Origin: a virus
Length of the DNA: 64,000 nucleotides
Virus record (IMG/VR): IMGVR_UViG_3300025030_000068
Location: 25,929 to 89,928 of that record
Strand: one strand, 5' to 3'
In this document: positions 3,219 to 63,532 of the stretch, piece by piece
Position numbering within the stretch: the stretch's first letter is position 1
Layout of the letters: every line of letters starts with the position of its first letter
Program-made: the position numbers and the translations under genes
The notes under the pieces: generated by a model
Told to the model about the DNA's origin: nothing
Database searches by the model: none
Seen by the model: the letters and a program-made list of their open reading frames with translations, nothing else

Positions 3219-3868
3219 GACTGGCAGCCTCTGGCGCCTTCCGGACAGCTCCCGCGCGTGCAGCCCGGTCCGGCGTCTGCGAATAATGCGGGAGCAATGC
3301 GCCTGCATGCGTTCAGCATCTCCTTCGCCATTTCCCGGATCTCCCATTGGGCACGGCTGCAGCAGCGCAGCGAGAAGAAGTGGCGCAGCTCTCTGGCGTT
3401 CATGGTCATCACCAGTTTCGTCTCGGCGGCGTTCGGGAGGACGAAACGGGCGTCTTCGGCGGGCACTCCGGCGTGGATCAATTCGTCGTAGAAAGCGAAG
3501 GCCTGCAGTTCCATGAATTCACGGTAGGCGGCCTCGTACCCGGCGGCGGAGATGCTTTCCGGGATGATGTAGTTAGCATCCTTCGTCCGGACATACCGTT
3601 GGCTCTGCTGCGAGAATGAAGCGACCCGGTGTCGCACCAGCTGGTGCGAGCAGGCCCGGCTGATTCCATCGACGGCGAAGGTGAAGCTGGCGTGCTCTGC
3701 GACCGACTCGTGTCCCATGCCGAGAACTTTCCGCAGCAGGAGAATGTCGCTGTCGGTTGTCGTGCCGGGGACAATGGCTGCTGGCATCCCGGCGCTGTAG
3801 CATACCCTTGCCGCGTAGGCGCAGACCGCTTCCGGGTCCGGGGTGTGGGTAACTAGTTGGACTTTCAT
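3215..3868 (-). CDS. thyX: FAD-dependent thymidylate synthase
   Basis: GHESVAEH and the RHRVASFSQQSQRY signature (RHRx7S); start MKVQLVTHTPDPE. Confidence 0.95.
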   Translation of the reverse strand: MKVQLVTHTPDPEAVCAYAARVCYSAGMPAAIVPGTTTDSDILLLRKVLGMGHESVAEHASFTFAVDGISRACSHQLVRHRVASFSQQSQRYVRTKDANYIIPESISAAGYEAAYREFMELQAFAFYDELIHAGVPAEDARFVLPNAAETKLVMTMNARELRHFFSLRCCSRAQWEIREMAKEMLNACRRIAPALFADAGPGCTRGSCPEGARGCQS

Positions 3869-5413: not shown

Positions 5414-5880
5414 GGTTTTCTCCTGATCGTGATTTCGAGCCCATCGACTCCGGGGACGAGGTGTGGCTGGTTCTTGTCACAGCCCATTGTGACCCATCGT
5501 TTGTGCTGTCGCTTGTGCAGGTCGCAGACGAGGTGGTTTACTCCTTCGACTTCAATCTTCTGGCCGTCCCATGCCCGGTGACCACACCTCTGGACAGCGC
5601 AGAGCGAGGGGAAAACGGGATGCTGACCGTCAGTCACCGGGTTGTTGCGTTCATAGACAATCTGTCCCCGGTTGATCCTGGCGCTGCAGTTGACGCAGAC
5701 ATATTCGACCCCCTTGTGGATGAGTCGTGGGTGGACCGCCAGCACGAGGTGCGTCACCATGAGCGTTCCGCCGCAGACGGAGCAGGTGCGGCAGCTCAGG
5801 CATCGGCGGACGCCATGCCGCTTGCACCATTGCCGGTCGGCGTTAATGCACTCCGGGTGGATGCCGTCCTTGAACGACAT
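5410..5880 (-). CDS. Cys-rich hypothetical protein
   Basis: Multiple CxxC pairs; start uncertain. Confidence 0.45.
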   Translation of the reverse strand: MSFKDGIHPECINADRQWCKRHGVRRCLSCRTCSVCGGTLMVTHLVLAVHPRLIHKGVEYVCVNCSARINRGQIVYERNNPVTDGQHPVFPSLCAVQRCGHRAWDGQKIEVEGVNHLVCDLHKRQHKRWVTMGCDKNQPHLVPGVDGLEITIRRKP

Positions 5881-5917
5881 ACGGGCGTAGCGCTGCCGCT
5901 CCCGTGGTCCCAGCGGA

Positions 5918-6532
5918 TCATCGCTTGAGTTTGATCCATTCATTGAACCGGTCGACAAGGGCGGTGAACTCCTCACGGTTGATGTCTGTGCAGCTGGCGA
6001 CGTTAAAGTGTTCCTTGAAACATGCCTTGCAAGTCTCCGGGCTATCAATACTTCTGGCTGCTGGCCAGAAAATTATCTCTCGCAAAAAATCCCAAAATCT
6101 CTCGTTGCGGAACCAGCCGACATGCAGCCCCTTGATTTCGTGCGAAGTCAGGGGGGAGCTGTTCTGTCTCTTTTCTGGTACCGGCACGTCGCTATAGCTG
6201 CGGATAGTCATGGTAATGCTGGTATCGGGAAGGGCGGTGATCATCGGGCCGATGCTCGCTTGTTGCTCGAAGCATGTCTCGAAGGAGAGAAAGAACTTTT
6301 TACCTTTGTGGGGGACGTCGACGATGAAGGCCGGCGAGATGGTGATGTTGATCTCCCCTTGTATTTCGATCTCGACCTTGCTGTCGATCAGGCCGGTCAG
6401 TTGCGAGGGGAGTTCCTTTTCTGTGGGGATTTCAACGAGGCAGCGCCATGCCTTCTGCGACCTCATCCACTTTCGTTCAACGAAGCGGCAAGGAATGACT
6501 AAATCTTTCGATATAGGGAACACTTGAGGCAT
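5918..6532 (-). CDS. hypothetical protein
   Basis: 204-aa ORF in operon orientation. Confidence 0.55.
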   Translation of the reverse strand: MPQVFPISKDLVIPCRFVERKWMRSQKAWRCLVEIPTEKELPSQLTGLIDSKVEIEIQGEINITISPAFIVDVPHKGKKFFLSFETCFEQQASIGPMITALPDTSITMTIRSYSDVPVPEKRQNSSPLTSHEIKGLHVGWFRNERFWDFLREIIFWPAARSIDSPETCKACFKEHFNVASCTDINREEFTALVDRFNEWIKLKR

Positions 6533-6615
6533 ACGCTTGCCGCTTTCTTATTTTTCCGGGCGGGGGGAGGGAACAACGGATTCAACCGCCGTCCCCGTCC
6601 CCGCTCCTGTTAGTT

Positions 6616-6858
6616 TTAGTTCTGGCACTCTTTGGCGGTACAGGTGGGACAGATAAACGCCTCGATCATCGCCGTTTGTACGTTGTTCTGCTCTGCGTAG
6701 ATCGCCTCTTCGAGATTCAACCACAGAGGTCGTTGCTCTCTGGTCATGGTTGCCAGTAGCGACTGTTCCGCGTCAGAGCGTTGCTGGCTGTTCTTTCCTC
6801 TTCCGGATTCCGCGATTTCCGAGAGCCGTTCCATGTCCTTCTTTGGGCACTGTGCCAT
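6616..6858 (-). CDS. hypothetical protein
   Basis: AGGAGG upstream, operon orientation. Confidence 0.55.
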   Translation of the reverse strand: MAQCPKKDMERLSEIAESGRGKNSQQRSDAEQSLLATMTREQRPLWLNLEEAIYAEQNNVQTAMIEAFICPTCTAKECQN

Positions 6859-7147
6859 TCCCTTTTCCTCCTATTGTTTTTCTACCGAATTTCCCGCCAA
6901 CCTGCATGCTCTCCAAGGCGGCGAGGATATGTGGCACCATGAACTTGTTCGGCTTCCCCGGTATATGCGGGAGCATTTTGCGGCGGCATAAGCGCGTGAC
7001 GTGCGTTTCGCTCCAGCCAGTCATGCGGGAGACGTCCCCGGTATCGAGCAAAAGCTGACCGATGCCGAGGAAGAGGTTGAGCCGTTCCTCCGCTTCTGGA
7101 GACGAGAGAAGAAAAGCAGTAATCTTTGCCTCAAGATGGTCCGTCAT
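6773..7147 (-). CDS. excisionase-like helix-turn-helix protein
   Basis: LLDTGDVSRMTGWSETHVTRLCRRKMLP resembles HTH_17/MerR-type HTH; close to the integrase. Confidence 0.6.
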   Translation of the reverse strand: MTDHLEAKITAFLLSSPEAEERLNLFLGIGQLLLDTGDVSRMTGWSETHVTRLCRRKMLPHIPGKPNKFMVPHILAALESMQVGGKFGRKTIGGKGNGTVPKEGHGTALGNRGIRKRKEQPATL

Positions 7148-7401: not shown

Positions 7402-7430
7402 ATAGTAACTGCTCCCGTTCCCTATGTCAA
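7402..7430 (-). promoter_or_regulatory. sigma70 promoter for the leftward operon, overlapped by the operator-like motif
   Basis: Minus strand TTGACA-17 bp-TACTAT. Confidence 0.75.
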
Positions 7431-7438
7431 AGGTTTTT

Positions 7439-8623
7439 ATGGCGAAAATTTACGCGCACAAACAGCACGGGTGGCAGTTGCGTTTCACCATCTATTTTGC
7501 TGAACAAAAGGTCGTCCGCTACCGCTTCAGCCGGTCTCGCGACGAGATGTATTCCATGCACCGGGCAGCGGAAATGCTGGAACTCGCCAGCCGTCGCTGT
7601 GACGCCTCTTTCCGTGAGGTGGAGGTCGCCGTCAACCTCGGTCTGATCTCCAGTTCCGAGGCGGTCCTGCTGACTGGCGGAAAACGATCGTCGTCCTATG
7701 ATCTTGATCTGGTCATGGAGCGCTGGTCGGTCTCCTCCTCGTTGCTCAACTCCCCCTACGGTCATGGAGTCAACCTGCGGCGTGGTGTCCGTCTGCGCCT
7801 CTGGCTGGAAGCGAACCCGATCCCGACGCTCGACGACGCTGCCGTGAAGAGATATATCCAGAGGCGCCGAGACGGGCTGCTGACCTATCCCCATCCCCGG
7901 ACCGGGATCACCGTCGTCGGCTGTTCGACCAAGACCATCACCAATGAGCTGCAGGTGCTACGGGCGATCATTGACGAGGCCGTGAAGCTCAAGATGGTCG
8001 ACATGAACGTGGCTCGGTCTGTCGATCTCCCGGTGAAGAAGTCAAAGTTTCGACGGTCCATGTCGATGGATGAGGTTTCGGCGCTCCTTGAAGCCGCCCA
8101 GCAGTCTCGGCACCTCTGTCATGGGTATGCGGTCGAGGTCTTGTCCTGTGCTGTCTATGCTGGCCTGCGGCGCTCGGAGATTCGGACCCTGCAGTGGCGC
8201 GACATCGACTTCGACAATGGTCGTATCCGGATCGTGCAGAAGGCGGTACCGGGCGAGGATGATTTTATCCCCAAGGGTGGCAATGCCGGCGTGACGACGC
8301 TGCCGGATCGCCTTGCCGAGATTCTTGAGCAGGTAGAGCGCAAGGGGGAGTGGGTCTTCGGTGGAGAGAAGCCGCTGGTTCTTACCGCGTTTTGGCAACT
8401 TTTCAAGGAGGTGGCGTCCCGTGCCGGGCTCCCCTCGGATTTGTCGCTCCATCACGCTCGCCATACCTACGGGTCGTGGCTGCTCCGCATGACCGGCGAT
8501 CTGTCGTATGTTCAGTCCGAAATGCGGCATACCGATATCAACACGACGCGGAACTACATGCATACGACCGCCTCGGAAAAACCGGCCCGGCTGCTCGACT
8601 TCGGCATCAAAAAAAAGGATTAA
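7439..8623 (+). CDS. int: tyrosine integrase
   Basis: AGLRRSE (R), PKGG (K), HHARH (HxxR), RHTDINTTRNY (H, Y); attP immediately downstream. Confidence 0.95.
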   Translation: MAKIYAHKQHGWQLRFTIYFAEQKVVRYRFSRSRDEMYSMHRAAEMLELASRRCDASFREVEVAVNLGLISSSEAVLLTGGKRSSSYDLDLVMERWSVSSSLLNSPYGHGVNLRRGVRLRLWLEANPIPTLDDAAVKRYIQRRRDGLLTYPHPRTGITVVGCSTKTITNELQVLRAIIDEAVKLKMVDMNVARSVDLPVKKSKFRRSMSMDEVSALLEAAQQSRHLCHGYAVEVLSCAVYAGLRRSEIRTLQWRDIDFDNGRIRIVQKAVPGEDDFIPKGGNAGVTTLPDRLAEILEQVERKGEWVFGGEKPLVLTAFWQLFKEVASRAGLPSDLSLHHARHTYGSWLLRMTGDLSYVQSEMRHTDINTTRNYMHTTASEKPARLLDFGIKKKD

Positions 8624-9833: not shown

Positions 9834-9922
9834 CGTGTTCCCCATATCGAAACCACCAGTTAGCGTCGGTTTCTTTTCATGATTGAGCAGCTTTGTCTGC
9901 CAACACCCCACAGGAGGTTCCT

Positions 9923-11527: not shown

Positions 11528-11590
11528 TCTTGAAACCACCAGTTAACGTCGGCTTCTTTTCCCCTGTGAAGCGGATCGGATTTATCACTC

Positions 11591-11645: not shown

Positions 11646-11740
11646 GTGACGGCCTGTAACGCGATGAGTTTTCGGGATGTCTAATCCCGGAAGGCCCATG
11701 CTCCCCGGCGTCCGTCACCGCCGGGGGGTATGGGTTTTTC
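11646..11740 (+). promoter_or_regulatory. structured leader/attenuator upstream of the replication initiator
   Basis: 17-bp hairpin 11694-11735 with T-run; loop CCGTCAC is complementary to GTGACGG at 11646-11652. Confidence 0.6.
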
Positions 11741-14693: not shown

Positions 14694-15656
14694 ATGACTG
14701 GAAAGGAGTTGTACGAGGGACGCTATTTTCATCGCAACCAGGATCGAGATTGGGCGTTTACCCGGCTGGACAAGATCAGCGACAATCAGGCTGCATTCAT
14801 CACCAAGCTGTGCGAGCGCGACGGCACATGTGGAACCGGCGGCCGTGGGATTGACTTCGGCGGATGGTCGGCTTGGTCATCTATCGTCACCGCATTGAAG
14901 CGCAAGGGCGTCTTGAAGGAAGAAGGCGGCAAGCTCATCTTGATCGAGGGCGAGCCGATTCCTTACGTGGAGCCGATGCTGCCAAAGCCCTACATGAAGG
15001 TCCAGCGCGTGTTGCTGGATGTGTTTGATGGCGAGCAGGTGTCGGTGCAGAACCAGTGGCTTTGGCTGGACCCGCGTGGCGATATGGAGTTTCTCGTGAT
15101 CCTGCCGCTGGAGATGGCGCAGGTGCTACCTGAGTCGAGCGAGCGGACCACAATGGCCGCCGGCTGCTTTTGTGCTCATGGCAAGGTGTCGAAGGAGGCA
15201 ATCAACCGTGCCTCGACGCTCTCGCGTGAGTTTATGGCGGTTCGCTCCGGCGTGTCGCGGCAGGTGCTCTTGATCGAGTTCGAGACGGAGATTAAAGATC
15301 CAGGTGAGCAGTATTACTCGAAAAACGGATTGATGTTCAGCTACAAGCGGATGCTCTATTTGGGTACTGGATTTCTTTATCTTGAATTGCCGGACGGCTC
15401 TCTGCGGCAGGCGAAGCATGTTGGAGACTTCGATACCTCCATCGTTAAGGCCAAGCTGGCCACCGACAAAACGGTGATCATCGATTATACCCCGGAGCGC
15501 GAGGTCGCTCTGGAGTCCCTGCGGATGCGGCTGGTGAATGCGGCTACCGATCTACAGCGCATTTTAACCGCCGACAACTTTGTGTCGGCCATCGACAGTC
15601 ACGGTCCGCGTCTTCTGAAGCTGGGCTCGACTAGCAAGAAGGGAATGGCGTCATGA
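14694..15656 (+). CDS. hypothetical protein
   Basis: 320-aa ORF with RBS, coupled to the next gene. Confidence 0.6.
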   Translation: MTGKELYEGRYFHRNQDRDWAFTRLDKISDNQAAFITKLCERDGTCGTGGRGIDFGGWSAWSSIVTALKRKGVLKEEGGKLILIEGEPIPYVEPMLPKPYMKVQRVLLDVFDGEQVSVQNQWLWLDPRGDMEFLVILPLEMAQVLPESSERTTMAAGCFCAHGKVSKEAINRASTLSREFMAVRSGVSRQVLLIEFETEIKDPGEQYYSKNGLMFSYKRMLYLGTGFLYLELPDGSLRQAKHVGDFDTSIVKAKLATDKTVIIDYTPEREVALESLRMRLVNAATDLQRILTADNFVSAIDSHGPRLLKLGSTSKKGMAS

Positions 15657-17703: not shown

Positions 17704-17954
17704 AGTGGCCGGTTGGGAAGTATAACGGCAGGCGCATTGTTGGGCTAGAGATCGACGCAAAGGTCCGCGTCAACGTCTGGTACTGGCGGCCTCGCTGGTT
17801 TACCTACACCTCTCGCATTGCCTGGCTCTGCTTCATTGTTTCGCTGGAGTGCGTCTACGACTGAAACCACCACTTAAGCGCGGTTTCTTTTCCTATATGA
17901 AGGGACGGCTGTCCCTAACTCTCATTTGCCTGCGGGCAGCAGAAAGGTTTTGCC

Positions 17955-52482: not shown

Positions 52483-53118
52483 TCATTGCTCGTAAATATG
52501 TTTCTTACGCAGCAGCACGCGGCTGCCGATATCGACTCCGTGGCTGACCCGTGTGGCGGGTGCCTCCACTGCAATCCACTCGACCATGCCGCGATACTTG
52601 ATGCTGTATTTCGTGCCGGGTCCGGGCGCCTTGGCGGTGAGCGCCTTCCCTACCCATGTCCAGACGATCGAGCGACCGTCGAGTTTGAAGTCGACGTTCT
52701 CGATATATTTGATGCGGTCGATGTCGTAGCAGACGATGGCGTCGGTCGCCGGGTAATAGAGGATGTCGCTGTCACCAAAGCCGCGCACCAGCGCTTCCCC
52801 CTGCCCGTGCGGGATCGGCCAGGTAAAGATGATCTTGTCGCCCTCGCTGACGATATCGGTCGAGAGGGGGGAAAAGACGCAATCACCGGGGAGCGCGACT
52901 CCCGATTCCAGCCAGTCCTTGTGCATGCTGATCGCCGTCACCAGACCAATCAACTGTTGCGACTCCGGGAAGAACCAGCCGCCCAGCTCATGCAGGTCGC
53001 AGTTCGGGTCCGGCTGGCCGTGGTCGTCGTGGCAGGGGCAGCGGGTACCGACCGCATGGGTGACGTACTCGCCTTCGGCTTCGACGAAGTTATTGATGGC
53101 GTCGACCGGGATCGTCAC
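52483..53118 (-). CDS. head-tail connector/neck protein
   Basis: CPC...PDPNC..H..GGW; GTG start overlaps the upstream TGA. Confidence 0.6.
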   Translation of the reverse strand: MTIPVDAINNFVEAEGEYVTHAVGTRCPCHDDHGQPDPNCDLHELGGWFFPESQQLIGLVTAISMHKDWLESGVALPGDCVFSPLSTDIVSEGDKIIFTWPIPHGQGEALVRGFGDSDILYYPATDAIVCYDIDRIKYIENVDFKLDGRSIVWTWVGKALTAKAPGPGTKYSIKYRGMVEWIAVEAPATRVSHGVDIGSRVLLRKKHIYEQ

Positions 53119-54476
53119 AGCGTCACCATTGACAGACCGCGATACTGATTTTTGATCTTCGGCAGATTCTCCTTGATCCACTTCTCGTTGTTCTCGATCG
53201 TCGCCGAGTAGATGCCGTAGCTGGCGCTGGCCGTGTAGCTGACCGAGCGGCTCACGCCGTCTTTGCTGGTACTCTCCGAGGAGAAGCCGCCGCGATAGGC
53301 TTGCCCGGCAATGGTCAGGATGCTGACTGCGGCCTTGAAACCAATCAGCTTAAGAATGTCCGCAGGCGTCTCCGGCAGCCCAGCCACAGCAATGTAGCGC
53401 CAGAAGTCGGCAATGTATTCTCGGAATCCCCAGAAGTTGATCTGCTGGAAGAACGTGTACATATAGCTGTACTGCCCGTTGTAGGGGAGGATGTCGAGGC
53501 TGCCGCTCTTCTTGTTGATCGCAAAGGCGCCGCTAGAGATTTCCAGTGCAGACGAGTTGCCGATGTAGCCGGCGACCTTGTCGACGCTCAGCAGCTGGTG
53601 GAAAGGAAGGTCCAGCTTCCATGCGAGCGAATTGTTGTTGAAATCGCGGGCGGTGTACATCACCGGGACAGCCTTGCGGTCATAGAAAGCGCCGGACTCC
53701 GAATAGTAGGGCTCGGTGGCGACTCGGTATGGCTCGACATAGACTTTTAGCAGGGTGTTCTCGACTTCGCTGATGGCCTTATCGATCTCCGCCCGCAGCT
53801 TGTCGTCTTCCCAATACTGTTTGTCGACCACGATCCCCTCGGAGGCGTCGGCGACCGGCAATTCGAATTCGTCGATATTGACCTCGGCATAGCCACCGCG
53901 CGGGTCCAGAAGAATCTCGCTGGCTCCGGTGATCGGGATCGCCGGACCTCCCCCCCATGACAGCGTTGCCGGGTTGCCGTCGACCTCTGCCGTGAAGACG
54001 AGGCCGTAGGTGGTCTTGCGGGTGTTCTCGGAGAGGCGATAAAAAGTGACGCCGGTCACCGCTGACGGCTGCCGTTTCGGGAATGGCATATCGGAGGCGT
54101 AGAGGGGGACACCAAAGCAGTACCCGTTCCGCATCTCCTCGACGGTGATCAGCGCAATTTTGAAGACGTCCGTGCTGGCGGTGACGGCTCCGGCTGTGGC
54201 CTCGACCAAGTACTCTCCCCGGACGCAGAGAGGGATGCCGCTGGCATCCTTGATCTCCGGCAGGTCAAAGGTGGCGACGTGCCCCTTCGGGTAGTCTCCG
54301 GCCAGGACGATCTCCTGCGTGGAGACGACCGGCCCACCTTTACGCCGCAGAGCGATAGTGACTGTCTCGGCCAAGCCCGTTGCCGGGGTCGGCAGGAGGC
54401 GCACCTTGACGATGCTCCTTGCCGATTCATGCCGTGAGTATTCGCTTTTGTCGGTTTTCAGGATCAGGCCGGTCAT
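53115..54476 (-). CDS. head-tail adaptor protein
   Basis: Y.FGVP...S.S.DGVS.S...TASA...YSA.I motif. Confidence 0.65.
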   Translation of the reverse strand: MTGLILKTDKSEYSRHESARSIVKVRLLPTPATGLAETVTIALRRKGGPVVSTQEIVLAGDYPKGHVATFDLPEIKDASGIPLCVRGEYLVEATAGAVTASTDVFKIALITVEEMRNGYCFGVPLYASDMPFPKRQPSAVTGVTFYRLSENTRKTTYGLVFTAEVDGNPATLSWGGGPAIPITGASEILLDPRGGYAEVNIDEFELPVADASEGIVVDKQYWEDDKLRAEIDKAISEVENTLLKVYVEPYRVATEPYYSESGAFYDRKAVPVMYTARDFNNNSLAWKLDLPFHQLLSVDKVAGYIGNSSALEISSGAFAINKKSGSLDILPYNGQYSYMYTFFQQINFWGFREYIADFWRYIAVAGLPETPADILKLIGFKAAVSILTIAGQAYRGGFSSESTSKDGVSRSVSYTASASYGIYSATIENNEKWIKENLPKIKNQYRGLSMVTL

Positions 54477-55359: not shown

Positions 55360-56799
55360 TTACGCCGGAGTATAGGTTCCGCAGTTCTTGAAGATTTTGA
55401 GGCGGTTCGGAGCCTTGACGACCGGCACCATGTAGAGCATGAGCAGGAACGGCAGGGTGGTCCCGACCAAGGGCAGGGGCAGCTTCATGAGCGGCGACAT
55501 CTGCGCGATGGCAAGGTCTTTCGGGTCCGGCTTCATGAGGATGCAGACGCCGTTCTCTTCCTTGCCGGCAGCGGACAGGGTGCGCCATTCGTTGCGGTCG
55601 ACGAATGTGATGTTGCCGCTGGAGCTTTGAGGCACTTTCGCGATCCACTGTGCATCGGACCCGTCGTCGACAAAGCCGCGATAGATGCGGTAGCCGGTGG
55701 CACCAGCAAGGCGGGTAATGACGGTCGTAACCTTGGTGGTGGCGTCGGCGACGACGGCTGCCGTGGTGGTGACGCCGAGGGACTCGCCAGTGTCGTTGAA
55801 GGCCGCGATGGTGTAGTAGTAGGTACCGGCGACGAATTTGCCGGCGGCATCGTCGGCGGCGGTGGCCTGGGTGGTGATCGCCGGGGTGGCGGGGGCTCCG
55901 GCGACAGCAGCTTCGACCGGCATGTTGGTGTCGACTTCCTGCGACATGATCGTGTGGTCGAAACCAATCGTGCCGTAGTTCGTGTCGTACTTGTTGACGA
56001 CGCTGCCGGGGGTATATGCCTGCCCGGTCGCAAGGTCTTTGTTGAATCTCTGCAGGTTGCGGGTGTTGAACAGCTTGTTGAGACCGCCCATGACGTGGAT
56101 GGAGCCGAGGGCTTCATACCCGTTGACGGTTGCCTGCTTGCCGACTTTCAGGAACTTCTCGGCGGCATCGTCGAGTTCGTCGAAGGAAAGGGGCTCACCT
56201 TCCATGTCGATGACGTTCTCGGCAAAGTTGGTGGTCAACTGTGCGAGCAGACCGTCGAAGTTGGCCTCGACGCCGTTCTCGTCGAGGACGAGCTTGTTGC
56301 CGAACAACAGTTCGCGCTCGACTTTGTCGAGAAGCTCGATGGAGCGGTCCTGGTTCTCGCGGACGCTGGGGTCTTCGAAGGCGCCGCCGTTGCTGCCGAC
56401 GGTCTGCATCTGGAGGGTGATCCCGCCAGCGACCCCGAGGTATTTGTTGCGGATGGTTTCACGCTTGAAGCTCGACACACCACCATTGGGGGCGCCGCCT
56501 TCGCGGAAGCCAGCACCGCCGCGACGGCTGGAGCCGAAGGAGGTGTGGACGTTATACTCGTAGAGCGGGGTGGCGCTGGGGACGCGCGGGAGCTTGTTGA
56601 ACAGCTTGATGTGCTCCTGAGTGATCAGGGTGCTGGTCATCAAGGCGTCGAGGTTTTCCAGCATGAGCGGGCCGTTGCCATTGGCAAGGGCTGTGCCGGT
56701 CTGGGTGTTGAGGGCTTTGGCGAATTCCTCGACGTAGGTGTCGACGTTCATCCCCATCCCTGCGGATTTCAGCATCTGGTCGAACGACTGAATGTTCAT
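55360..56799 (-). CDS. major capsid protein (SPO1/Twort-like)
   Basis: L..ENLD, YEYN, E..LFG, FDGL; Ig-like insert GTYYYTIAAFNDTGES; PLMKLPL. Confidence 0.9.
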   Translation of the reverse strand: MNIQSFDQMLKSAGMGMNVDTYVEEFAKALNTQTGTALANGNGPLMLENLDALMTSTLITQEHIKLFNKLPRVPSATPLYEYNVHTSFGSSRRGGAGFREGGAPNGGVSSFKRETIRNKYLGVAGGITLQMQTVGSNGGAFEDPSVRENQDRSIELLDKVERELLFGNKLVLDENGVEANFDGLLAQLTTNFAENVIDMEGEPLSFDELDDAAEKFLKVGKQATVNGYEALGSIHVMGGLNKLFNTRNLQRFNKDLATGQAYTPGSVVNKYDTNYGTIGFDHTIMSQEVDTNMPVEAAVAGAPATPAITTQATAADDAAGKFVAGTYYYTIAAFNDTGESLGVTTTAAVVADATTKVTTVITRLAGATGYRIYRGFVDDGSDAQWIAKVPQSSSGNITFVDRNEWRTLSAAGKEENGVCILMKPDPKDLAIAQMSPLMKLPLPLVGTTLPFLLMLYMVPVVKAPNRLKIFKNCGTYTPA

Positions 56800-57562: not shown

Positions 57563-58435
57563 TTAACCTGCGATGCCGGACTGTTTGACCAGAGCCATGA
57601 TGTCCGGTCGTTTGGTTGCGCCTTTAATCAGCCCGCGCATGAATGCCGCTGACTGAGCCTTATCGTGTCCGAGGCACTCGTTCATGTGGACGAGGGCGCC
57701 GGCCATGCCTTTTTTAAATTTGCCGTTGGCGTCACAGCAGCCGCAGCCGGTGTCGCCGTAGAGGACGTTGGTCATTCCCCGGTCAAGATTCTGCAACATG
57801 AGCGGACCGGCGCTGGTCGTGCTCATGGCTGCCGCGTCGGATTTGTGCATGTGATCGCCGCAGGTGTGTCCGGGGATGTGCAGAGGGTGGAGAGGTTGGC
57901 AGCGGCCACAGCAAAAACTTTTGGCGAAGATTTCGACGGTGCAGTCTGGGTTCACAGGCTTATGGGTGATGGCCAGATGCTTGACAATGGCCTTCTCGAT
58001 CTTGTTGCCGCTGCGCTTGATGACTGATCCTTCGACCGAATAGGACAGGGTGCGGCGCCCGCTCTTCTGGAGGGCAAGGCCGAGTTCCCACATTTCGTTC
58101 GCCAGCCGCAGCTGTTCGCTGGCCGGGTTCTGGATATCACTCTTGAGGAGTTCCCCTTCGACCCACAGTCCCTTCTCGCGCATCTCCGCGTGCGTCGGGT
58201 AGCCGATGATCACCGGCATGCGGGTTCCGGCGAGTTCCTGATACTGGTGGTCGTAGTTGAGGAAACCGCTTTTCAGCAGCGGTCCGAAGTCAAGACCGTT
58301 CTGGAGGATGATCTCGCCTTGCTGGTCAAGGTTCTCAGTGGAGGCGTAACCGCGCACGATCCGGCGTCCATCGGACTCGGACTTCACGAAATCAATCTCG
58401 GCTTGAAATAGAACCTGCGTCTCTTCCACTGTCAT
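57563..58435 (-). CDS. prohead protease
   Basis: GYAST...DQQGE, NYDH, YSVEG, AIT.KPVN. Confidence 0.9.
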   Translation of the reverse strand: MTVEETQVLFQAEIDFVKSESDGRRIVRGYASTENLDQQGEIILQNGLDFGPLLKSGFLNYDHQYQELAGTRMPVIIGYPTHAEMREKGLWVEGELLKSDIQNPASEQLRLANEMWELGLALQKSGRRTLSYSVEGSVIKRSGNKIEKAIVKHLAITHKPVNPDCTVEIFAKSFCCGRCQPLHPLHIPGHTCGDHMHKSDAAAMSTTSAGPLMLQNLDRGMTNVLYGDTGCGCCDANGKFKKGMAGALVHMNECLGHDKAQSAAFMRGLIKGATKRPDIMALVKQSGIAG

Positions 58436-58442
58436 CTCCTTG

Positions 58443-58489
58443 AAAACGCAAAAGGGCAAACTCCCGGCTGTGCGGGTGTTTGCCCTCTG
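58443..58489 (-). terminator. terminator/attenuator upstream of the protease gene
   Basis: Minus strand AGGGCAAACACCCG...CGGGAGTTTGCCCTTTTGCGTTTT. Confidence 0.6.
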
Positions 58490-58528
58490 ATCCCAACTGG
58501 CTTGCTTTCGCTGGCTGGCTGGGGAGTG

Positions 58529-58708
58529 CTACGTATTATCGATGGTGATCATGATCAGCTTCCCGGCCTTGGTCCGGCTGATCTCAAAAGTTCTGGCTCC
58601 AAAAAGGAACCGTGCCGGGAAGTCGGAATCTTTCAGCACCGGGACGTGCTCCCCGGTTCCCTGCTTTGACTTTCGGAGTAGGTAGATGCCGGGAAGAATC
58701 TTGCTCAT
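58529..58708 (-). CDS. 59-aa leader ORF with HemP-like motif
   Basis: Manual translation ends in FEISRTKAGKLIMITIDNT. Confidence 0.45.
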   Translation of the reverse strand: MSKILPGIYLLRKSKQGTGEHVPVLKDSDFPARFLFGARTFEISRTKAGKLIMITIDNT

Positions 58709-59012
58709 GGGGGCATTTTTGCAGTCCGTGTTCCCTATGTCAATTTTTTTGCTGCCATGGTATTTTTTCTCTGGATCGAAACCACCAGTTAACCGGGGTT
58801 TCTTTTCCTTTATGAAGGGATGATCCTTCCTCTTTCGGATGCGCCAGCGGGCGCTTGGAGGTTCTTATGTTGTCTGTTTGCGGGTACATCAAAGGTCGTC
58901 GCCATTTTTTCTTCTCTGTTACCGACGCCGCCGCAGCCGGTGCTATCGGGGTCTATGTCCTCGGCGCTCCTCTCGATCCTAATTCTGTTCTCTCCTCAGA
59001 ATGGGGGTGGAA

Positions 59013-59336
59013 ATGACCGGACTTATTCCCACTCCCGGCCCGTGGCACTTCGGCGTCGGCAACGGTTCCGGCTGCATCTTTGCCGACGCTGGCCGCGTGC
59101 GGTTGAAGGAAGGCGAAACGACTCTCTTCCCTATCGCCACCGTCGACTTTGATTTTGATGCGACGGCAGGTGCTGGCAACGGTCTCCGTATGGCCGCCGC
59201 CCCGGAACTCTTTGCTCTGGCCGAGCGCGTTTCCCGTCTCAATCGTGACGCGGGTGAGATCGGCGCTGGCATGCTGGCGCAACTGATCGTCGAGGCTCGT
59301 CTTGCTGTGGCCAAAGCCAATGGTGAGCTACCATGA
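59013..59336 (+). CDS. phage hypothetical protein
   Basis: TPGPW...N..MAAAPEL...AVAKA.GE motif. Confidence 0.7.
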   Translation: MTGLIPTPGPWHFGVGNGSGCIFADAGRVRLKEGETTLFPIATVDFDFDATAGAGNGLRMAAAPELFALAERVSRLNRDAGEIGAGMLAQLIVEARLAVAKANGELP

Positions 59337-59536
59337 CGGCTCCTCGCATCCAGTCCCTCTCCTGCTGCTGCTGCGGTAACTCGACCCTTGGCCGCCAGTG
59401 GTGGAATCGCGATACCGGCTTCGGCCTCTGCGACAACTGCATTACTTTCGTCGGGGACGCTGATGTCCCTGTTGGTGAAACCGCTCAAAGCTACGGCATC
59501 CGTGGCTTCCACTACGATGTCTCGAAAGGAGTTTGA
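59333..59536 (+). CDS. small Cys-rich phage protein
   Basis: CCCCG...GRQWWNRDTGFGLC..C...YGIRG.HY. Confidence 0.65.
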   Translation: MTAPRIQSLSCCCCGNSTLGRQWWNRDTGFGLCDNCITFVGDADVPVGETAQSYGIRGFHYDVSKGV

Positions 59537-59728
59537 TCATGTATTGTGCTCGACGTGTTCCCCATAGTAAAATGTCCATTGGCCATTACCTCATGGTCGC
59601 CATCCTGATCGTCTTGATCGCGATCATCCTCTGCCAGTTGCCGCATGCTATCGATGTGGAGCTGGATATGTCCGACGCCTCTGCCCAGCGCAATCAGGCG
59701 CAATCTTCGAATTGAAAGGAGACTTGCC

Positions 59729-59875
59729 ATGCACCGACCTGTTCCAAAGCGGATCATTCGCGATCCCGTCTTCCGCTGCCACCTCTGCATGTTTACGACC
59801 AGGTGGCGGCCAGAGTATGTTAGTCATATTGTAATGCATCAGCGAGTTGCGGCAGAATCGGCGAAGACGCCATAA
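59729..59875 (+). CDS. C2H2 zinc-finger microprotein
   Basis: FRCHLCMFTTRWRPEYVSHIVMH; AAGGAG RBS; its stop codon lies in the attC1 core. Confidence 0.6.
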   Translation: MHRPVPKRIIRDPVFRCHLCMFTTRWRPEYVSHIVMHQRVAAESAKTP

Positions 59876-59925
59876 CGCCCCTGAACTGTACGGCGCAAAG
59901 CGACCGGACGAGTGATTTGTTAGAC
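59870..59925 (+). repeat. attC-like site 1
   Basis: CCATAAC...internal hairpin CGGCGC-AAA-GCGACCG...GTTAGAC. Confidence 0.75.
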
Positions 59926-59943
59926 ATCAGAACGGAGACGAGA

Positions 59944-60318
59944 ATGAGCGGATTATTTTACCTGCAAGACAAGAGGTCATACGTCGGCAATGACATGCTC
60001 TTCTGGGCAGAGAGTGGCGGATATACCACAGACTTAAGGAAATCCGAGGTGATGACCAAAGAAGAAGCCTTCGCACAAAATCGGTGTAGATCAACCGACA
60101 TACCTTGGCCGAAGGAGTATATCGACGCGAGGGCAAGACCGGCTGTCGATATGCAGTATGTGAATATAAGGGAAGCGTTGCAGGACGTTGACGGCGAATT
60201 GTATGTTGAACCTAAGCCGCCACGGGAGATTTTTAAGTGCTACCACTGTGGGAAATTTATATCTGAGCGTGAGTCTTATTCTACATGCCCTCACTGTGAC
60301 GGCAGCAATCATCATTGA
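59944..60318 (+). CDS. cassette 1: conserved phage hypothetical protein with C-terminal zinc ribbon
   Basis: FYLQDKRSYVGND..FW...GYTTDL...DIPWPK.YID; CYHC/CPHC. Confidence 0.75.
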   Translation: MSGLFYLQDKRSYVGNDMLFWAESGGYTTDLRKSEVMTKEEAFAQNRCRSTDIPWPKEYIDARARPAVDMQYVNIREALQDVDGELYVEPKPPREIFKCYHCGKFISERESYSTCPHCDGSNHH

Positions 60319-60319
60319 T

Positions 60320-60373
60320 GTCTAACGATTTCAACTAAGCGGTGCGTAGCATCCGGTTCAGTGGGTGTTATGG
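60320..60373 (+). repeat. attC-like site 2
   Basis: GTCTAAC...CGGTGC-GTA-GCATCCG...GTTATGG. Confidence 0.8.
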
Positions 60374-60389
60374 CGCGGGAGGTAGAAGG

Positions 60390-60641
60390 ATGGAAACCGA
60401 AACATTGGAACGACTCAGAAATAATATTTTGACGGCAAAAATTGAGATGGAAGAAGAACTCGAAATGAGATGGCCGAAAGGGTCGAGGGTAAACGTACTG
60501 TTGAATTGTCGGCAGACCATACCGACCACAGGAGTAGTCGTCGGCCACGATGGTCGCGGGTTTGTCCGTGTTCGGATCGACAGTGCAAAAGAACGTAGTC
60601 GGCGTGGGTGTCGGGATGTTTATTTCACTGAGATGCGTTGA
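60390..60641 (+). CDS. cassette 2: hypothetical protein
   Basis: GGAGG RBS just after the attC2 core; stop 3 bp before the attC3 core. Confidence 0.65.
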   Translation: METETLERLRNNILTAKIEMEEELEMRWPKGSRVNVLLNCRQTIPTTGVVVGHDGRGFVRVRIDSAKERSRRGCRDVYFTEMR

Positions 60642-60644
60642 GCG

Positions 60645-60749
60645 CTATAACGGGCCATGATCAGCGGACCGCGACGACAGGCCGCAACCCGCTGAGATTT
60701 TCGAGAGTAGCAGAGAGTTATTCGGTCCGCCTGGATCTTTTGGTTGTGT
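60645..60749 (+). repeat. attC-like site 3
   Basis: CTATAAC...GATCAGCGGACC / GGTCCGCCTGGATC (pairs with bulged bases)...GTTGTGT. Confidence 0.8.
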
Positions 60750-60763
60750 GCCGGTTTTGTAGG

Positions 60764-61468
60764 ATGGATGAAATGATAGATCTTCTGAACGTCGACTGTA
60801 TGGAATATCTGAAAGGCTGCGCTAACAACGCTTTTGATTTGGCGATTGTTGACCCGCCTTATGGTCTAGGTGAGGACGGCGGAACCAATAGGTGCCACGG
60901 AGTAAAGCAGAAAAACGGGACAGTGCTCCGCTGTCTTGATGGTGGATACCAGAAAAAGGCATGGGACAAGGAGACGCCGGCCCCTGAATATTTCGCCGAG
61001 TTGAAACGAGTGGCGAAGCATCAAATTATATGGGGAGTAAATTACTACCCCGTGGCGCTGCCGGGTGGCCGGATCATCTGGGACAAGGTAAACGACGGGG
61101 CCGACCAGTGCGGAGCCGAGATAGCTTACAACAGCCTGAATGAGCGGGTGGACATCGTGCGCTATATGTGGCGCGGAATGATGCAAGGGGTTTCGGTTGC
61201 TCGAGGAACTGTGCAGCAGGGCAACAAGGCACTCAACGAAAAGCGGATACACCCGACGCAGAAGCCAGTGAAGTTGTATTCCTGGCTGCTGGAAACCTAC
61301 GCCGCAAAGGGGTGGCGGGTAGTTGACACCCACCTTGGGAGCGGAAGCGCTGCAGTGGCCGCGCATTATTTCGGTTGTGATTTTGTGGGCTGCGAAATCG
61401 ACCACGATTATTACGAGGCGGCGAAGAGACGCTTTGAAGAGGACACGCGGCAAATCGCCATGTTTTGA
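60764..61468 (+). CDS. cassette 3: N6/N4 DNA methyltransferase
   Basis: IVDPPYG, IIWDK, IHPTQKP, DTHLGSGS. Confidence 0.9.
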   Translation: MDEMIDLLNVDCMEYLKGCANNAFDLAIVDPPYGLGEDGGTNRCHGVKQKNGTVLRCLDGGYQKKAWDKETPAPEYFAELKRVAKHQIIWGVNYYPVALPGGRIIWDKVNDGADQCGAEIAYNSLNERVDIVRYMWRGMMQGVSVARGTVQQGNKALNEKRIHPTQKPVKLYSWLLETYAAKGWRVVDTHLGSGSAAVAAHYFGCDFVGCEIDHDYYEAAKRRFEEDTRQIAMF

Positions 61469-61471
61469 GGC

Positions 61472-61523
61472 GCACAACGCTATAGCATCACCGGCTCCGT
61501 CCGGTGCATAGCGTTGGTTGTGC
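61472..61523 (+). repeat. attC-like site 4
   Basis: GCACAAC-GCTAT..GCA.CACCGG...CCGGTGCATAGC..-GTTGTGC. Confidence 0.8.
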
Positions 61524-61560
61524 GAGCCCTAAATTATTTTAAAATAATGTCGTTTTCCTG

Positions 61561-61589
61561 TTGACACCGTACAATGTACGGGCTATAGT
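61561..61589 (+). promoter_or_regulatory. sigma70 promoter with a palindromic operator in the spacer
   Basis: TTGACA-17 bp-TATAGT; CCGTACA-A-TGTACGG at 61567-61581. Confidence 0.85.
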
Positions 61590-61633
61590 TAAATCACAAC
61601 AGAGGAAAACAAACCCCAAACAGGAGAAACGAC

Positions 61634-61933
61634 ATGAAATACAAAATCCAGAGTCGCAAACAGGAAAATTGGTTCAGCAACGAGTTGGTGACGGAAACTG
61701 TCAGGACTGTCACCGTGCAGGGCGTGACGATGAGCATCCCGGAATCGATCGCTAGCCAGCCGCTGCAAATTCAGTGGGCGCATCAGCACGGCGGGAACAT
61801 CAAACCGGCCGGAGTGACTAACGGATATTTGGTTCTCGCTGGCCAGGCGAGAGACATGACGGACATCGGTATAAACAAATATCAAGGGGATTTTTGCCAC
61901 ATTGATGGCGAATATCTCGTAATCGAGAAATGA
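61634..61933 (+). CDS. cassette 4 gene A: hypothetical protein
   Basis: AGGAG RBS; follows a consensus promoter. Confidence 0.7.
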   Translation: MKYKIQSRKQENWFSNELVTETVRTVTVQGVTMSIPESIASQPLQIQWAHQHGGNIKPAGVTNGYLVLAGQARDMTDIGINKYQGDFCHIDGEYLVIEK

Positions 61934-61934
61934 T

Positions 61935-62111
61935 ATGACGTTGGCGGAGTTCAAGGAGGCTCAGGGCAACCTGGGCCTCACCAACGAGGCAATGGCCGAC
62001 CTGCTGTGCTGCTCTCTACGGCTGGTCGAAAAAATACGACAGGGTGAGCGGGCAGTGTCCGCCCGCACATCACGGATGATTGAACGCGAGTTACAGCAGC
62101 GCGGCGAGTAG
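61935..62111 (+). CDS. cassette 4 gene B: XRE-type HTH protein (58 aa, not in the ORF track)
   Basis: MTLAEFKEAQGNLGLTNEAMADLLCCSLRLVEKIRQGER. Confidence 0.75.
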   Translation: MTLAEFKEAQGNLGLTNEAMADLLCCSLRLVEKIRQGERAVSARTSRMIERELQQRGE

Positions 62112-62245
62112 GCCGCCCAACTACTGATTATACAGACCGTTCGGCAGTCTAACAACTTGTCTTAATAAATGGCGGATACCTAAAACAATCGCACAGTTAA
62201 TTCTGCTTCCGGCGGATAACGGAATCACGAAAGGCCGCCAATTGC

Positions 62246-62290
62246 AAAAAAGGCCCCACACCGGCACAGGGCTGGTGTGGGGCCTTTTTT
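62246..62290. terminator. bidirectional terminator
   Basis: AAAAAAGGCCCCACACCGGC-ACAGG-GCTGGTGTGGGGCCTTTTTT. Confidence 0.85.
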
Positions 62291-62291
62291 G

Positions 62292-62624
62292 TCAGTCTTT
62301 TCTGCGCTCCAGTCGCTCCCTCCGCCGATCCTTCGGCGTCACCTTCCGCTGCCATTGCCGCTTGAAGAGGATGCGCTCGCAGGTCAGCAGCCGCGTGCCG
62401 CTTTCGTCCAGTACCAGCCGCCATCCGTCCGCGACGAAGTATTGCGCTGGCTGGAAGCTGTTGCTGATCAGTCGCAGCGCAGAGGCAGCCAACTCCTCCG
62501 GGACGGCCTTCTCCAGCAGTTCCCGCAGCGCCGTGCTCCAACACTCCGGCTTCTCTGCGTGCGGCCACCGTGTCGCGAAACGTTCGCTGGCGTGGCAGGT
62601 GATGAAGAGACCGTTGGGGTTCAT
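62292..62624 (-). CDS. hypothetical protein
   Basis: IT.HA.ERF motif; coupled to the upstream gene. Confidence 0.55.
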   Translation of the reverse strand: MNPNGLFITCHASERFATRWPHAEKPECWSTALRELLEKAVPEELAASALRLISNSFQPAQYFVADGWRLVLDESGTRLLTCERILFKRQWQRKVTPKDRRRERLERRKD

Positions 62625-63532
62625 TATGCTGCGTCTTCCTCATACCAGAAGAGGTTATAGCCAAAAGTGACGGCGATGTCGTCGGCGTTGCTGAACGCGA
62701 CCAAATACGAAACCCCTTGCGCCAGCACCTTCTCTTCTGGCTCTCCGGATTCCGAGCTGACTTTGACCTGTCCTGTTGATGCTCCGGGGAGAGTCAGCGT
62801 GCCCAGAGTGACAGGAATGTCACCGGCCTCGGCTGCAACGTCGAGGTATGCTGTCACCGCTAGCGTCGACTGTTGCACGGGCCGGGCGCGATGATGGTTG
62901 ATCGGAGTCAGATCGGCGGCAATAGCGGCAGCCGTGGCATCCATCGCGTAGTCTTCCAGTATCGACACCGAGCATGGCCCTGATGTTGCCGTTATGGAAG
63001 CCGCCTGGAAATGGACGTAGGCTTTGGCGTTCCCTCCGGCCAATGCTGTTTCGGCTACGGCATTCACGACGCCACTGCCGTCTCCTTCGGCGGCGCACGT
63101 CACCAGTTCGGCGGCGTCAGCATTGGCAGCGATCGCGGCGGCGACCTGTGCTGCGGTGGAGGTGATCGCAGCGCCAGCGTTGACGGCAAGGTTGACAACG
63201 ATATCTGTCCCGGTCACCACCACTGACAACGGTGCCTCCGCGCCGGGATTGATGTGGGCGACGGTCGTCAGGTTCCCACGGAGCCCGATGGCCGTGGCGG
63301 TGTAGGTCAGGTCGGCAAGAGCATTGGTCATGTCAATGGCGAGGCTGGCGGCGCGGTCGTCGGGCACGTCGATCTGGATGGCACCGACATTGCCGGCGGC
63401 GACAGTGATCGATCCACTGAGAGAGTAGGCTTTCTTGTCGTGGACCTTTTGGTGGTTGGAGTTGATGCCTACCAGTGCTCCGGTGACTCTCTCGATGGGG
63501 TTGTCGCTGCGGTTCCGGCTGATACCTTTCAT
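62624..63532 (-). CDS. putative virion structural protein
   Basis: Ala/Thr-rich beta protein; ITSTAAQV.AAI...GDGSGVV...LAGG sheath-like subdomain. Confidence 0.5.
   Translation of the reverse strand: MKGISRNRSDNPIERVTGALVGINSNHQKVHDKKAYSLSGSITVAAGNVGAIQIDVPDDRAASLAIDMTNALADLTYTATAIGLRGNLTTVAHINPGAEAPLSVVVTGTDIVVNLAVNAGAAITSTAAQVAAAIAANADAAELVTCAAEGDGSGVVNAVAETALAGGNAKAYVHFQAASITATSGPCSVSILEDYAMDATAAAIAADLTPINHHRARPVQQSTLAVTAYLDVAAEAGDIPVTLGTLTLPGASTGQVKVSSESGEPEEKVLAQGVSYLVAFSNADDIAVTFGYNLFWYEEDAA

Follow-up and report, generated by a model that had tools for sequence, protein, structure and literature searches.

An insertion-type footprint with integron-like logic around a small accessory gene of a groundwater phage

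Described phage cassette systems and the present locus

Stem-loop elements between small accessory genes, as found in the locus studied here, recall the PeSL mobile regulatory cassettes, which Arbiol et al. reportedly described in 2010 from the hyperplastic regions of T4-type phages. PeSLs have reportedly been proposed to shuffle genes via mini-circles, using homologous recombination between direct repeats that include a promoter. Unlike in PeSLs, the informative relation in our locus is inverted and crosswise, and the sites carry no promoter.

Clusters of attC sites without an integrase (CALINs) have already been published in phage genomes, and the attC sites of phage TJE1 recombine with IntI1 (Qi et al. 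2023, PMC9892861). Our locus resembles such systems in several respects. There is one promoterless ORF per unit, as in integron cassettes and CALINs, and the sites open with TAAC at or beside a stop codon and close with GTTA some 25 nt ahead of the following start codon, as attC sites do. In the units of genes 1 and 2 the opening bases complement the left end of the unit's own site, as they do in integron cassettes, and the sites contain a predicted bulged hairpin. The units include a DNA methylase, which is also true of the TJE1 and P12002L arrays, and the placement is that of the published CALIN of Shewanella phage M16-3 (L155, 14664-17002), a plus-strand island of small genes lying antisense among minus-strand baseplate and tail genes. 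The differences are equally clear. Our sites reach at most 11.5 bits with an attC model versus 23.6-70.6 bits for known sites, their internal loops measure 7-8 x 4-5 nt instead of ~3 x 3, their bulges are on the opposite arm, and IntI is missing. Unlike in integron arrays, the arm logic holds for only two of the four units, and a 5-bp direct repeat (GATTT) is present here, whereas integron recombination makes no such repeat.

The mycobacteriophage elements MPME1 and MPME2 provide another comparison, since they too are phage units of ~0.4 kb with 11-bp inverted repeats near the ends and a single ORF of ~123-125 codons filling the element. MPMEs occur in multiple copies and are identical in several phages, have imperfect repeats and add a 6-bp sequence of unknown origin (Sampson 2009; Pope 2011, PMC3029335). 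Our element, by contrast, occurs only once, its repeats are perfect and the duplication has 5 bp, and its ORF comes from an unrelated, widespread phage accessory family. We considered whether this ORF (gene 1) could be an MPME homologue and ruled it out, as its relatives are accessory genes of Proteobacteria phages.

Our analysis indicates that the locus carries a real and statistically solid footprint of the insertion type, integron-like in its logic, for which a transposon-like mechanism is a serious rival; the insertion footprint itself is well supported. If the footprint is what it seems, it would represent a clean single-event record of small-gene gain at defined hairpin junctions in phages, and the published phage attC clusters would be extended to sites that standard attC detectors miss. 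These implications come from one locus and one event, in an uncultured phage, with a gene of unassigned function.

Crosswise arms around a compositionally foreign gene

The DNA analysed is the final 64 kb of a virus record in IMG/VR, which measures 89,928 bp, originates from groundwater metagenomes and is rated complete by CheckV. This 64,000-nucleotide stretch is called the window, and positions refer to it unless the genome is named. The virus is a tailed phage, with the genes for a tail fibre (53115-54476), the major capsid protein (55360-56799) and a head protease (57563-58459) all on the minus strand. A small-gene operon (58820-61468) runs antisense, on the plus strand, between the conserved minus-strand structural genes and contains the insertion footprint. 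The nearest relatives, L057 and L058, show 55-65% amino-acid identity in the flanking genes and have other small genes, unrelated to those of the window, at this position. Compared with them, the plus-strand island 58460-62290 is a variable insert between the head protease and a conserved 110-aa structural gene (62292-62624); the counterpart in L058 is 5536-7001. Since the relatives carry other small genes at the same position, we regard the island as a variable accessory island. A 302-aa gene next to it (62624-63532) is also absent from both relatives.

A promoter-like repeat of ~75 nt stands at the head of the operon (58779-58854, plus strand), and matches to it recur in the contigs of the sequencing runs. 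The 90-kb genome has seven further full or partial copies with 83-100% identity, three inside the window (17863-17905, 9846-9878 and 11532-11547) and four upstream of it (genome positions 14923-14995, 6835-6910, 11681-11707 and 3302-3330). The repeat, with the core TTTCTTTTCCTTTATGAAGGGATGATCC, precedes gene clusters and is probably a phage-specific promoter. L058 has a repeated element of its own, with the same GGGATGAYCC core, ahead of each small gene.

Gene 1 (59944-60318, plus strand) encodes a 124-aa protein with a C-terminal zinc ribbon (phrog_2457) and no assigned function; we found no transposase or recombinase signature in its product. Its homologues are in Burkholderia, Pseudomonas, Vibrio and P1/P7 phages. 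Gene 2 (60390-60641, plus strand) encodes an 83-aa orphan. Both genes are compositionally foreign: their GC contents are 47.7% and 48.4%, versus 57.8% for the genome, and their GC3 values are 54% and 46%, versus 71 +/- 8% in the long ORFs. Gene 1 has a cassette-like layout, with GTT 25 nt ahead of its ATG and TAAC directly after its stop codon, and gene 2 is enclosed by arms of its own, TTATGGCGC (60368-60376) and GCGCTATAA (60642-60650), which are complementary in 9 of 10 positions. The closest relatives found through the protease, gene 1 and gene 2 have a best amino-acid identity of 62-63%, which makes a comparison at the nucleotide level impossible.

Upstream of gene 1 lies a 48-aa ORF (59729-59875, plus strand) without a family match, whose stop codon TAA (59873-59875) falls inside the left outer arm described below. 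The coding end of this ORF (59839-59853) and the 3' arm of the site C hairpin (60681-60695) match in inverted orientation over 15 nt (93%); as chance alone would give ~0.15 such matches in the region, this one may mean nothing.

The two spacers flanking gene 1, i.e. site A (59868-59929) and site B (60316-60375), match each other in an inverted and crosswise manner. A first-pass annotation of this DNA had pointed out that GCCATAAC (59869-59876) is the exact reverse complement of GTTATGGC (60367-60374), and we found this to be correct, with every motif in place. These two 8-nt sequences occur twice and once, respectively, in the 89,928-bp genome. The complementarity covers 20 nt rather than the 8 first noticed, between the left outer arm CGCCATAACGCCCCTGAAC (59868-59886) and the right outer arm GTTCAGTGGGTGTTATGGCG (60356-60375), with one mismatch and one indel; a repeat search returned 13 nt of it at 92% (59868-59880 / 60363-60375). 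The same search found the inner arms, GTTAGACATCA (59919-59929) and TGATGTCTAAC (60316-60326), to be a perfect inverted repeat (11/11) around gene 1. The left one starts with GTTAGAC (59919-59925) and fits the core-site consensus GTTRRRY, and the right one begins with the stop codon of gene 1, ends with GTCTAAC (60320-60326) and fits RYYYAAC. All four arms are given as read on the plus strand.

The inverted match of the two spacers is far beyond chance. A gapped alignment of the first spacer with the reverse complement of the second aligns the whole ~62 nt with a score of 46, while 5000 shuffles gave 15.7 +/- 3.0 with a maximum of 30, and 2415 genome-wide window pairs at the same spacing gave a maximum of 35. 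No further copy of site A or site B is present in the genome. Among 43 homologues of gene 1 in other viral contigs, none has an exact flanking inverted repeat of at least 9 bp, so the repeats belong to the locus and not to the gene family.

A 5-bp direct repeat, GATTT, directly abuts the outside of both inner arms on the plus strand (59914-59918 and 60327-60331). Of the 75 inverted-repeat pairs of at least 11 bp in the genome, none but the pair around gene 1 is flanked by a direct repeat of at least 4 bp; shuffled genomes give 0.2 such cases on average.

Each site encloses a predicted hairpin of 29 nt on the plus strand. Hairpin H_A (59885-59913) folds as ACTGT.CGGCGC-AAA-GCG.CCG..AC.AGT, with two bulges in the 3' arm and one 1x1 mismatch, and hairpin H_B (60334-60362) folds into the same bracket pattern in direct orientation. 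The two share 18 of 29 bases, and three base pairs have changed in a compensatory way (G-C to A-T, T-A to A-T and C-G to T-A). The bulges, two per hairpin, lie in the 3' arm in both cases, so the hairpins are direct to each other though the arms around them are inverted. This identical, direct and compensated architecture speaks for a pair of sites belonging to one family rather than for a simple inverted duplication. We found no Rfam match at the sites.

In silico removal of 59920-60367 yields two matched hairpins, a restored target and a circle junction, as the first-pass annotation had predicted. The restored target has a stem of 9-10 bp (DNA fold z -3.1) and the circle junction a stem of 12 bp (z -5.6), whereas the folding predicted for today's hybrid sites is poor (z -1.3 and -0.35). 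The predicted fold of the restored sites consists of an R stem of 9-12 bp, an internal loop and the bulged 29-nt hairpin with a triloop.

Candidate mechanisms of a proposed insertion

Crosswise complementarity of this kind is what a unit classically leaves behind when it is spliced into a site that already existed. We tentatively favour, with rather less than even confidence, the interpretation that gene 1 and one hairpin site form a cassette of ~0.45 kb, which would have been spliced site-specifically into a hairpin site that was already there and belonged to the same family. The insertion event that we infer, and its mode of working, would be as follows. A pre-existing hairpin site between two accessory genes of the phage operon would receive a one-gene unit. 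The plan of such a site would be a left arm ending with TAAC, 7-8 nt, the 29-nt bulged hairpin, 4-5 nt and a right arm starting with GTTA. After the insertion, site A would consist of the left arm of the old site and the right arm of the cassette, and site B of the left arm of the cassette and the right arm of the old site. Because the insertion would have mixed the arms, each arm now pairs across gene 1 and not inside its own site. Gene 2 and the methylase downstream have the look of additional units of this island. A fairly young event, in line with the recent insertion that the first-pass annotation had proposed, would agree with the perfect match of the 11-bp arms and with a GC content that is still unameliorated.

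Three crossover positions fit the arm pattern: G|TT, GATTT (for a transposon-like insertion or as an att core) and a position inside the hairpin. A crossover in the hairpin centre is unlikely, since both H_A and H_B are internally compensated. At G|TT each site would stay a complete unit with one hairpin. The first-pass annotation had placed the breakpoint there (59919|59920), and the good folding of the restored sites agrees with it; the position is not unique, however, as the GATTT repeat and the 20-nt outer match fit equally well with 59919-60326 plus one GATTT having entered the centre of a longer palindromic element.

The first-pass annotation had further read the event as a site-specific insertion at an attC. 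The insertion footprint part of that claim is supported by the cross-complementarity, and the same logic applies in phage TJE1, our positive control, where the bases that open a cassette after G|TT complement the R'' of the cassette's own attC site (7/7 and 7-8/8). The attC part is not supported by a model of such sites. We built a covariance model (R1) with R and L stems from 12 attC sites of three phages. On the three control phages it recovered ~36 sites at 23.6-70.6 bits, with no matches outside the arrays, including some 16 Vibrio-type sites of which only one was in the training set. The score threshold of the published pipeline is 20 bits. With default filters the model gave no match in the whole 64-kb window. 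With filters off, the region 59500-62500 gave 11.5 bits for site A, 6.3 for D, 5.1 for C and 4.0 for E, and none for B, so that every score is below the threshold and below all control sites. These weak matches sit exactly on the sites, those at A, C and D on the minus strand. A simple fold-based attC scanner, which recovers real sites but gives many false positives in a GC-rich genome, found only site D.

The geometry differs as well. The internal loops of the restored sites are large and asymmetric (8x5 and 7x4 nt) compared with ~3x3 in the control sites, and their bulges, taken in gene direction, fall on the 3' arm, opposite to canonical cassettes; the sites would look canonical only if the minus strand were read. 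The arms of gene 1 (GTCTAAC/GTTAGAC) fit the RYYYAAC/GTTRRRY consensus perfectly, and the other pairs of the island, i.e. CCATAAC/GTTATGG, CTATAAC/GTTATTC and GCACAAC/GTTGGTT, are each 1-2 positions off; validated phage attC sites deviate as well, e.g. GTATAAC/GTTATGC. The complementarity between the cassette start and its own R'' is 11/11 for gene 1 and 9/10 for gene 2, versus 5/7 or worse for the methylase unit and the last unit. We found no integron integrase in the 89,928-bp genome: the only PF00589 match is at 7424-8623, and this sole tyrosine recombinase scores 47 bits on TIGR02249, for which the cut-off is 265. No serine recombinase, Y1, rve or IS110 enzyme was found in the genome either. 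Since the phage lacks IntI, the enzyme would have to act in trans or be an unrecognised one. Membership of the attC family is thus not shown, the resemblance in logic stands, and the attC claim is partly supported.

An alternative hypothesis could be that the insert is a 408-bp transposon-like element (59919-60326) with 11-bp terminal inverted repeats, carrying only gene 1, moved by a host transposase in trans and flanked by a GATTT target duplication. Its target would have been a structured intergenic element of ~95 nt, in which a 20-bp outer stem enclosed two tandem hairpins, hit at the centre. Perfect terminal inverted repeats directly flanked by a 5-bp duplication are a textbook signature of transposition, and this is the sole such combination in the genome; repeats and duplication together reach a genome-wide p of only ~0.05. 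Such an element would account for the GATTT repeat and the full 20-nt outer match together, both of which integron-like splicing leaves as coincidences (for the outer match, the part beyond the 9-bp arm). The restored 104-nt target also folds very well (DNA z -5.6, RNA z -4.8), and the size, the 11-bp repeats and the ORF of ~124 codons recall the MPME elements. We nevertheless judge transposition to be unlikely. Gene 1 is not a transposase and is unrelated to MPMEs, its relatives being ordinary accessory genes of Proteobacteria phages without repeats; the phage encodes no transposase; and no second copy with these ends, 370-400 nt apart, was found in 2.9 million viral contigs. Transposition would also need several coincidences, i.e. 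ends with GTTA and TAAC like the outer arms, the fit to GTTRRRY/RYYYAAC, and attC-like distances to the hairpins. Splicing of a cassette in turn has to cope with attC scores of 4-11.5 bits against at least 23.6 for every control site, with large asymmetric loops, with an arm logic that fails for the methylase unit and the last unit, and with searches that found no second copy, empty site or circle. In its favour, the restored sites fold well and the present hybrids poorly, the model's four weak matches across the 3-kb island coincide exactly with sites A, C, D and E, the homology of the methylase to other phages stops at GTT and AAC motifs, and genes 1 and 2 have a GC content of 48% versus 58% in an island that varies between conserved structural genes. 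We place the integron-like mechanism slightly ahead of the transposon-like one because of the unit architecture, the parallel of gene 2 and the cassette-like layout. A more specific speculation, which we hold to be rather unlikely, is that the phage bears a cassette system that copies the integron logic with non-attC sites, made of complementary arms and conserved bulged hairpins, and uses an unrecognised or host recombinase.

The repeats might also have arisen without any insertion, being kept by selection because they pair across gene 1 (20 bp + 11 bp) as RNA or single-stranded DNA, in a processing or regulatory structure or as the ends of an invertible segment. The long-range helices would be stable, both spacers lie within one operon driven by the repeated promoter (58779-58854), and the predicted hairpins with their conserved bulges resemble protein-binding operators. 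The direct, not mirrored, orientation of the hairpins and the foreign GC of genes 1 and 2 weaken such a structural or regulatory role, as do the lack of an Rfam match and the 43 homologues without such repeats; an inversion finds no counterpart either in an invertase gene of this genome or in an inverted or alternative joint in the contigs at ~1290x depth. We therefore consider this origin quite improbable. Very unlikely in our estimate is ordinary phage mosaicism, in which genes would be swapped by homologous or illegitimate recombination at short similar palindromes at gene boundaries, comparable to PeSLs or linkers, with no dedicated recombinase. It would suit an island that is variable in the relatives, the methylase homology block that stops at gene borders, and a contig of run X1 whose divergence from the phage begins at 59623, within a gene rather than at a site. 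Homologous exchange between direct repeats, however, leaves no crosswise inverted complementarity and does not create a perfect inverted pair of 11 bp flanked by a 5-bp direct repeat, and the similarity of sites A and B in direct orientation is weak (z 1.7).

Integron-like splicing and transposition predict different sequences for the empty site and the circle. Splicing at G|TT predicts a circle that retains H_B, with the junction ...GTGGGTG|TTAGACATCA, and transposition predicts abutted ends, TGATGTCTAAC(GATTT)GTTAGACATCA. The viral contigs, with near-identical records excluded, had no match to the empty junction GTGATTTG|TTATGGCG that the first-pass annotation had suggested, and none to the empty site expected after transposition, AGTGATTT|CAACTAAG, with one GATTT and both hairpins. 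The hairpin pattern shared by the two sites had no match in viral contigs. As the collections searched exclude near-identical records, the negative results on the empty site, the circle and further copies are weak evidence of absence. A pattern covering the G|TT empty site had 0 matches in the JGI metagenome contigs, where its 38-nt gap limit would miss the site predicted by transposition. The 21-nt left flank had 0 matches there too, so these contigs offer no relative to compare. No joint skipping gene 1 was found in the contigs of four groundwater runs, bearing in mind that contigs drop rare variants; contigs at ~1290x depth are identical to the phage over 59445-62496. A pattern of the site architecture matched once in species genomes, in an AT-rich stretch of a deltaproteobacterial MAG, and we judged this match to be due to chance.

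Further sites and genes of the island

The X1 contig (extra depth ~9) tracks the phage up to 59623, within the gene 59533-59715, and then continues with unrelated sequence, which suggests a co-occurring strain with a different downstream island.

Site C (60642-60723, plus strand) follows gene 2 and reads GCGCTATAAC, a 35-nt hairpin, GATTTT and finally GTTATTC. Aligned in direct orientation, the left parts of sites C and A resemble each other (z 2.8). Site C (60658-60745) is matched over 88 nt at ~84% by a separate contig, one of 43 kb from run X4 (depth ~23), and site C together with the methylase start (60643-60832) recurs unchanged on a 190-nt contig that comes from another study (X5). These matches suggest that site C or the methylase leader may move between genomes.

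The methylase (60764-61468, plus strand) is an N6/N4 DNA methyltransferase module (PF01555), and the arms of its unit do not match each other. It shows nucleotide homology of 82% and 79% to two unrelated viral contigs only across 60725-61478, a block whose edges run from just after GTTATTC to GCACAAC. Phage records searched by DNA similarity gave only distant methylase matches. The protein has 42% amino-acid identity to the methylase of the TJE1 cassette, and the 5' leaders of the two agree in 12 of 15 nt, which is not significant unless anchored (p 0.06).

Site D (61472-61523, plus strand) forms a strong hairpin that closes the operon, with fold z values of -3.4 and -4.1 and a self-complementarity z of 6.2. 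It is most simply explained as the terminator-like hairpin of the operon, and its attC-like look is noted as well. Behind this hairpin (61562-62111), two genes, the first of 99 aa and the second of 58 aa, lie downstream of a sigma-70-like promoter (TTGACA-17-TATAGT). Fourteen contigs encode the 99-aa protein; one of them, with 90,033 bp, is a sibling assembly of the phage.
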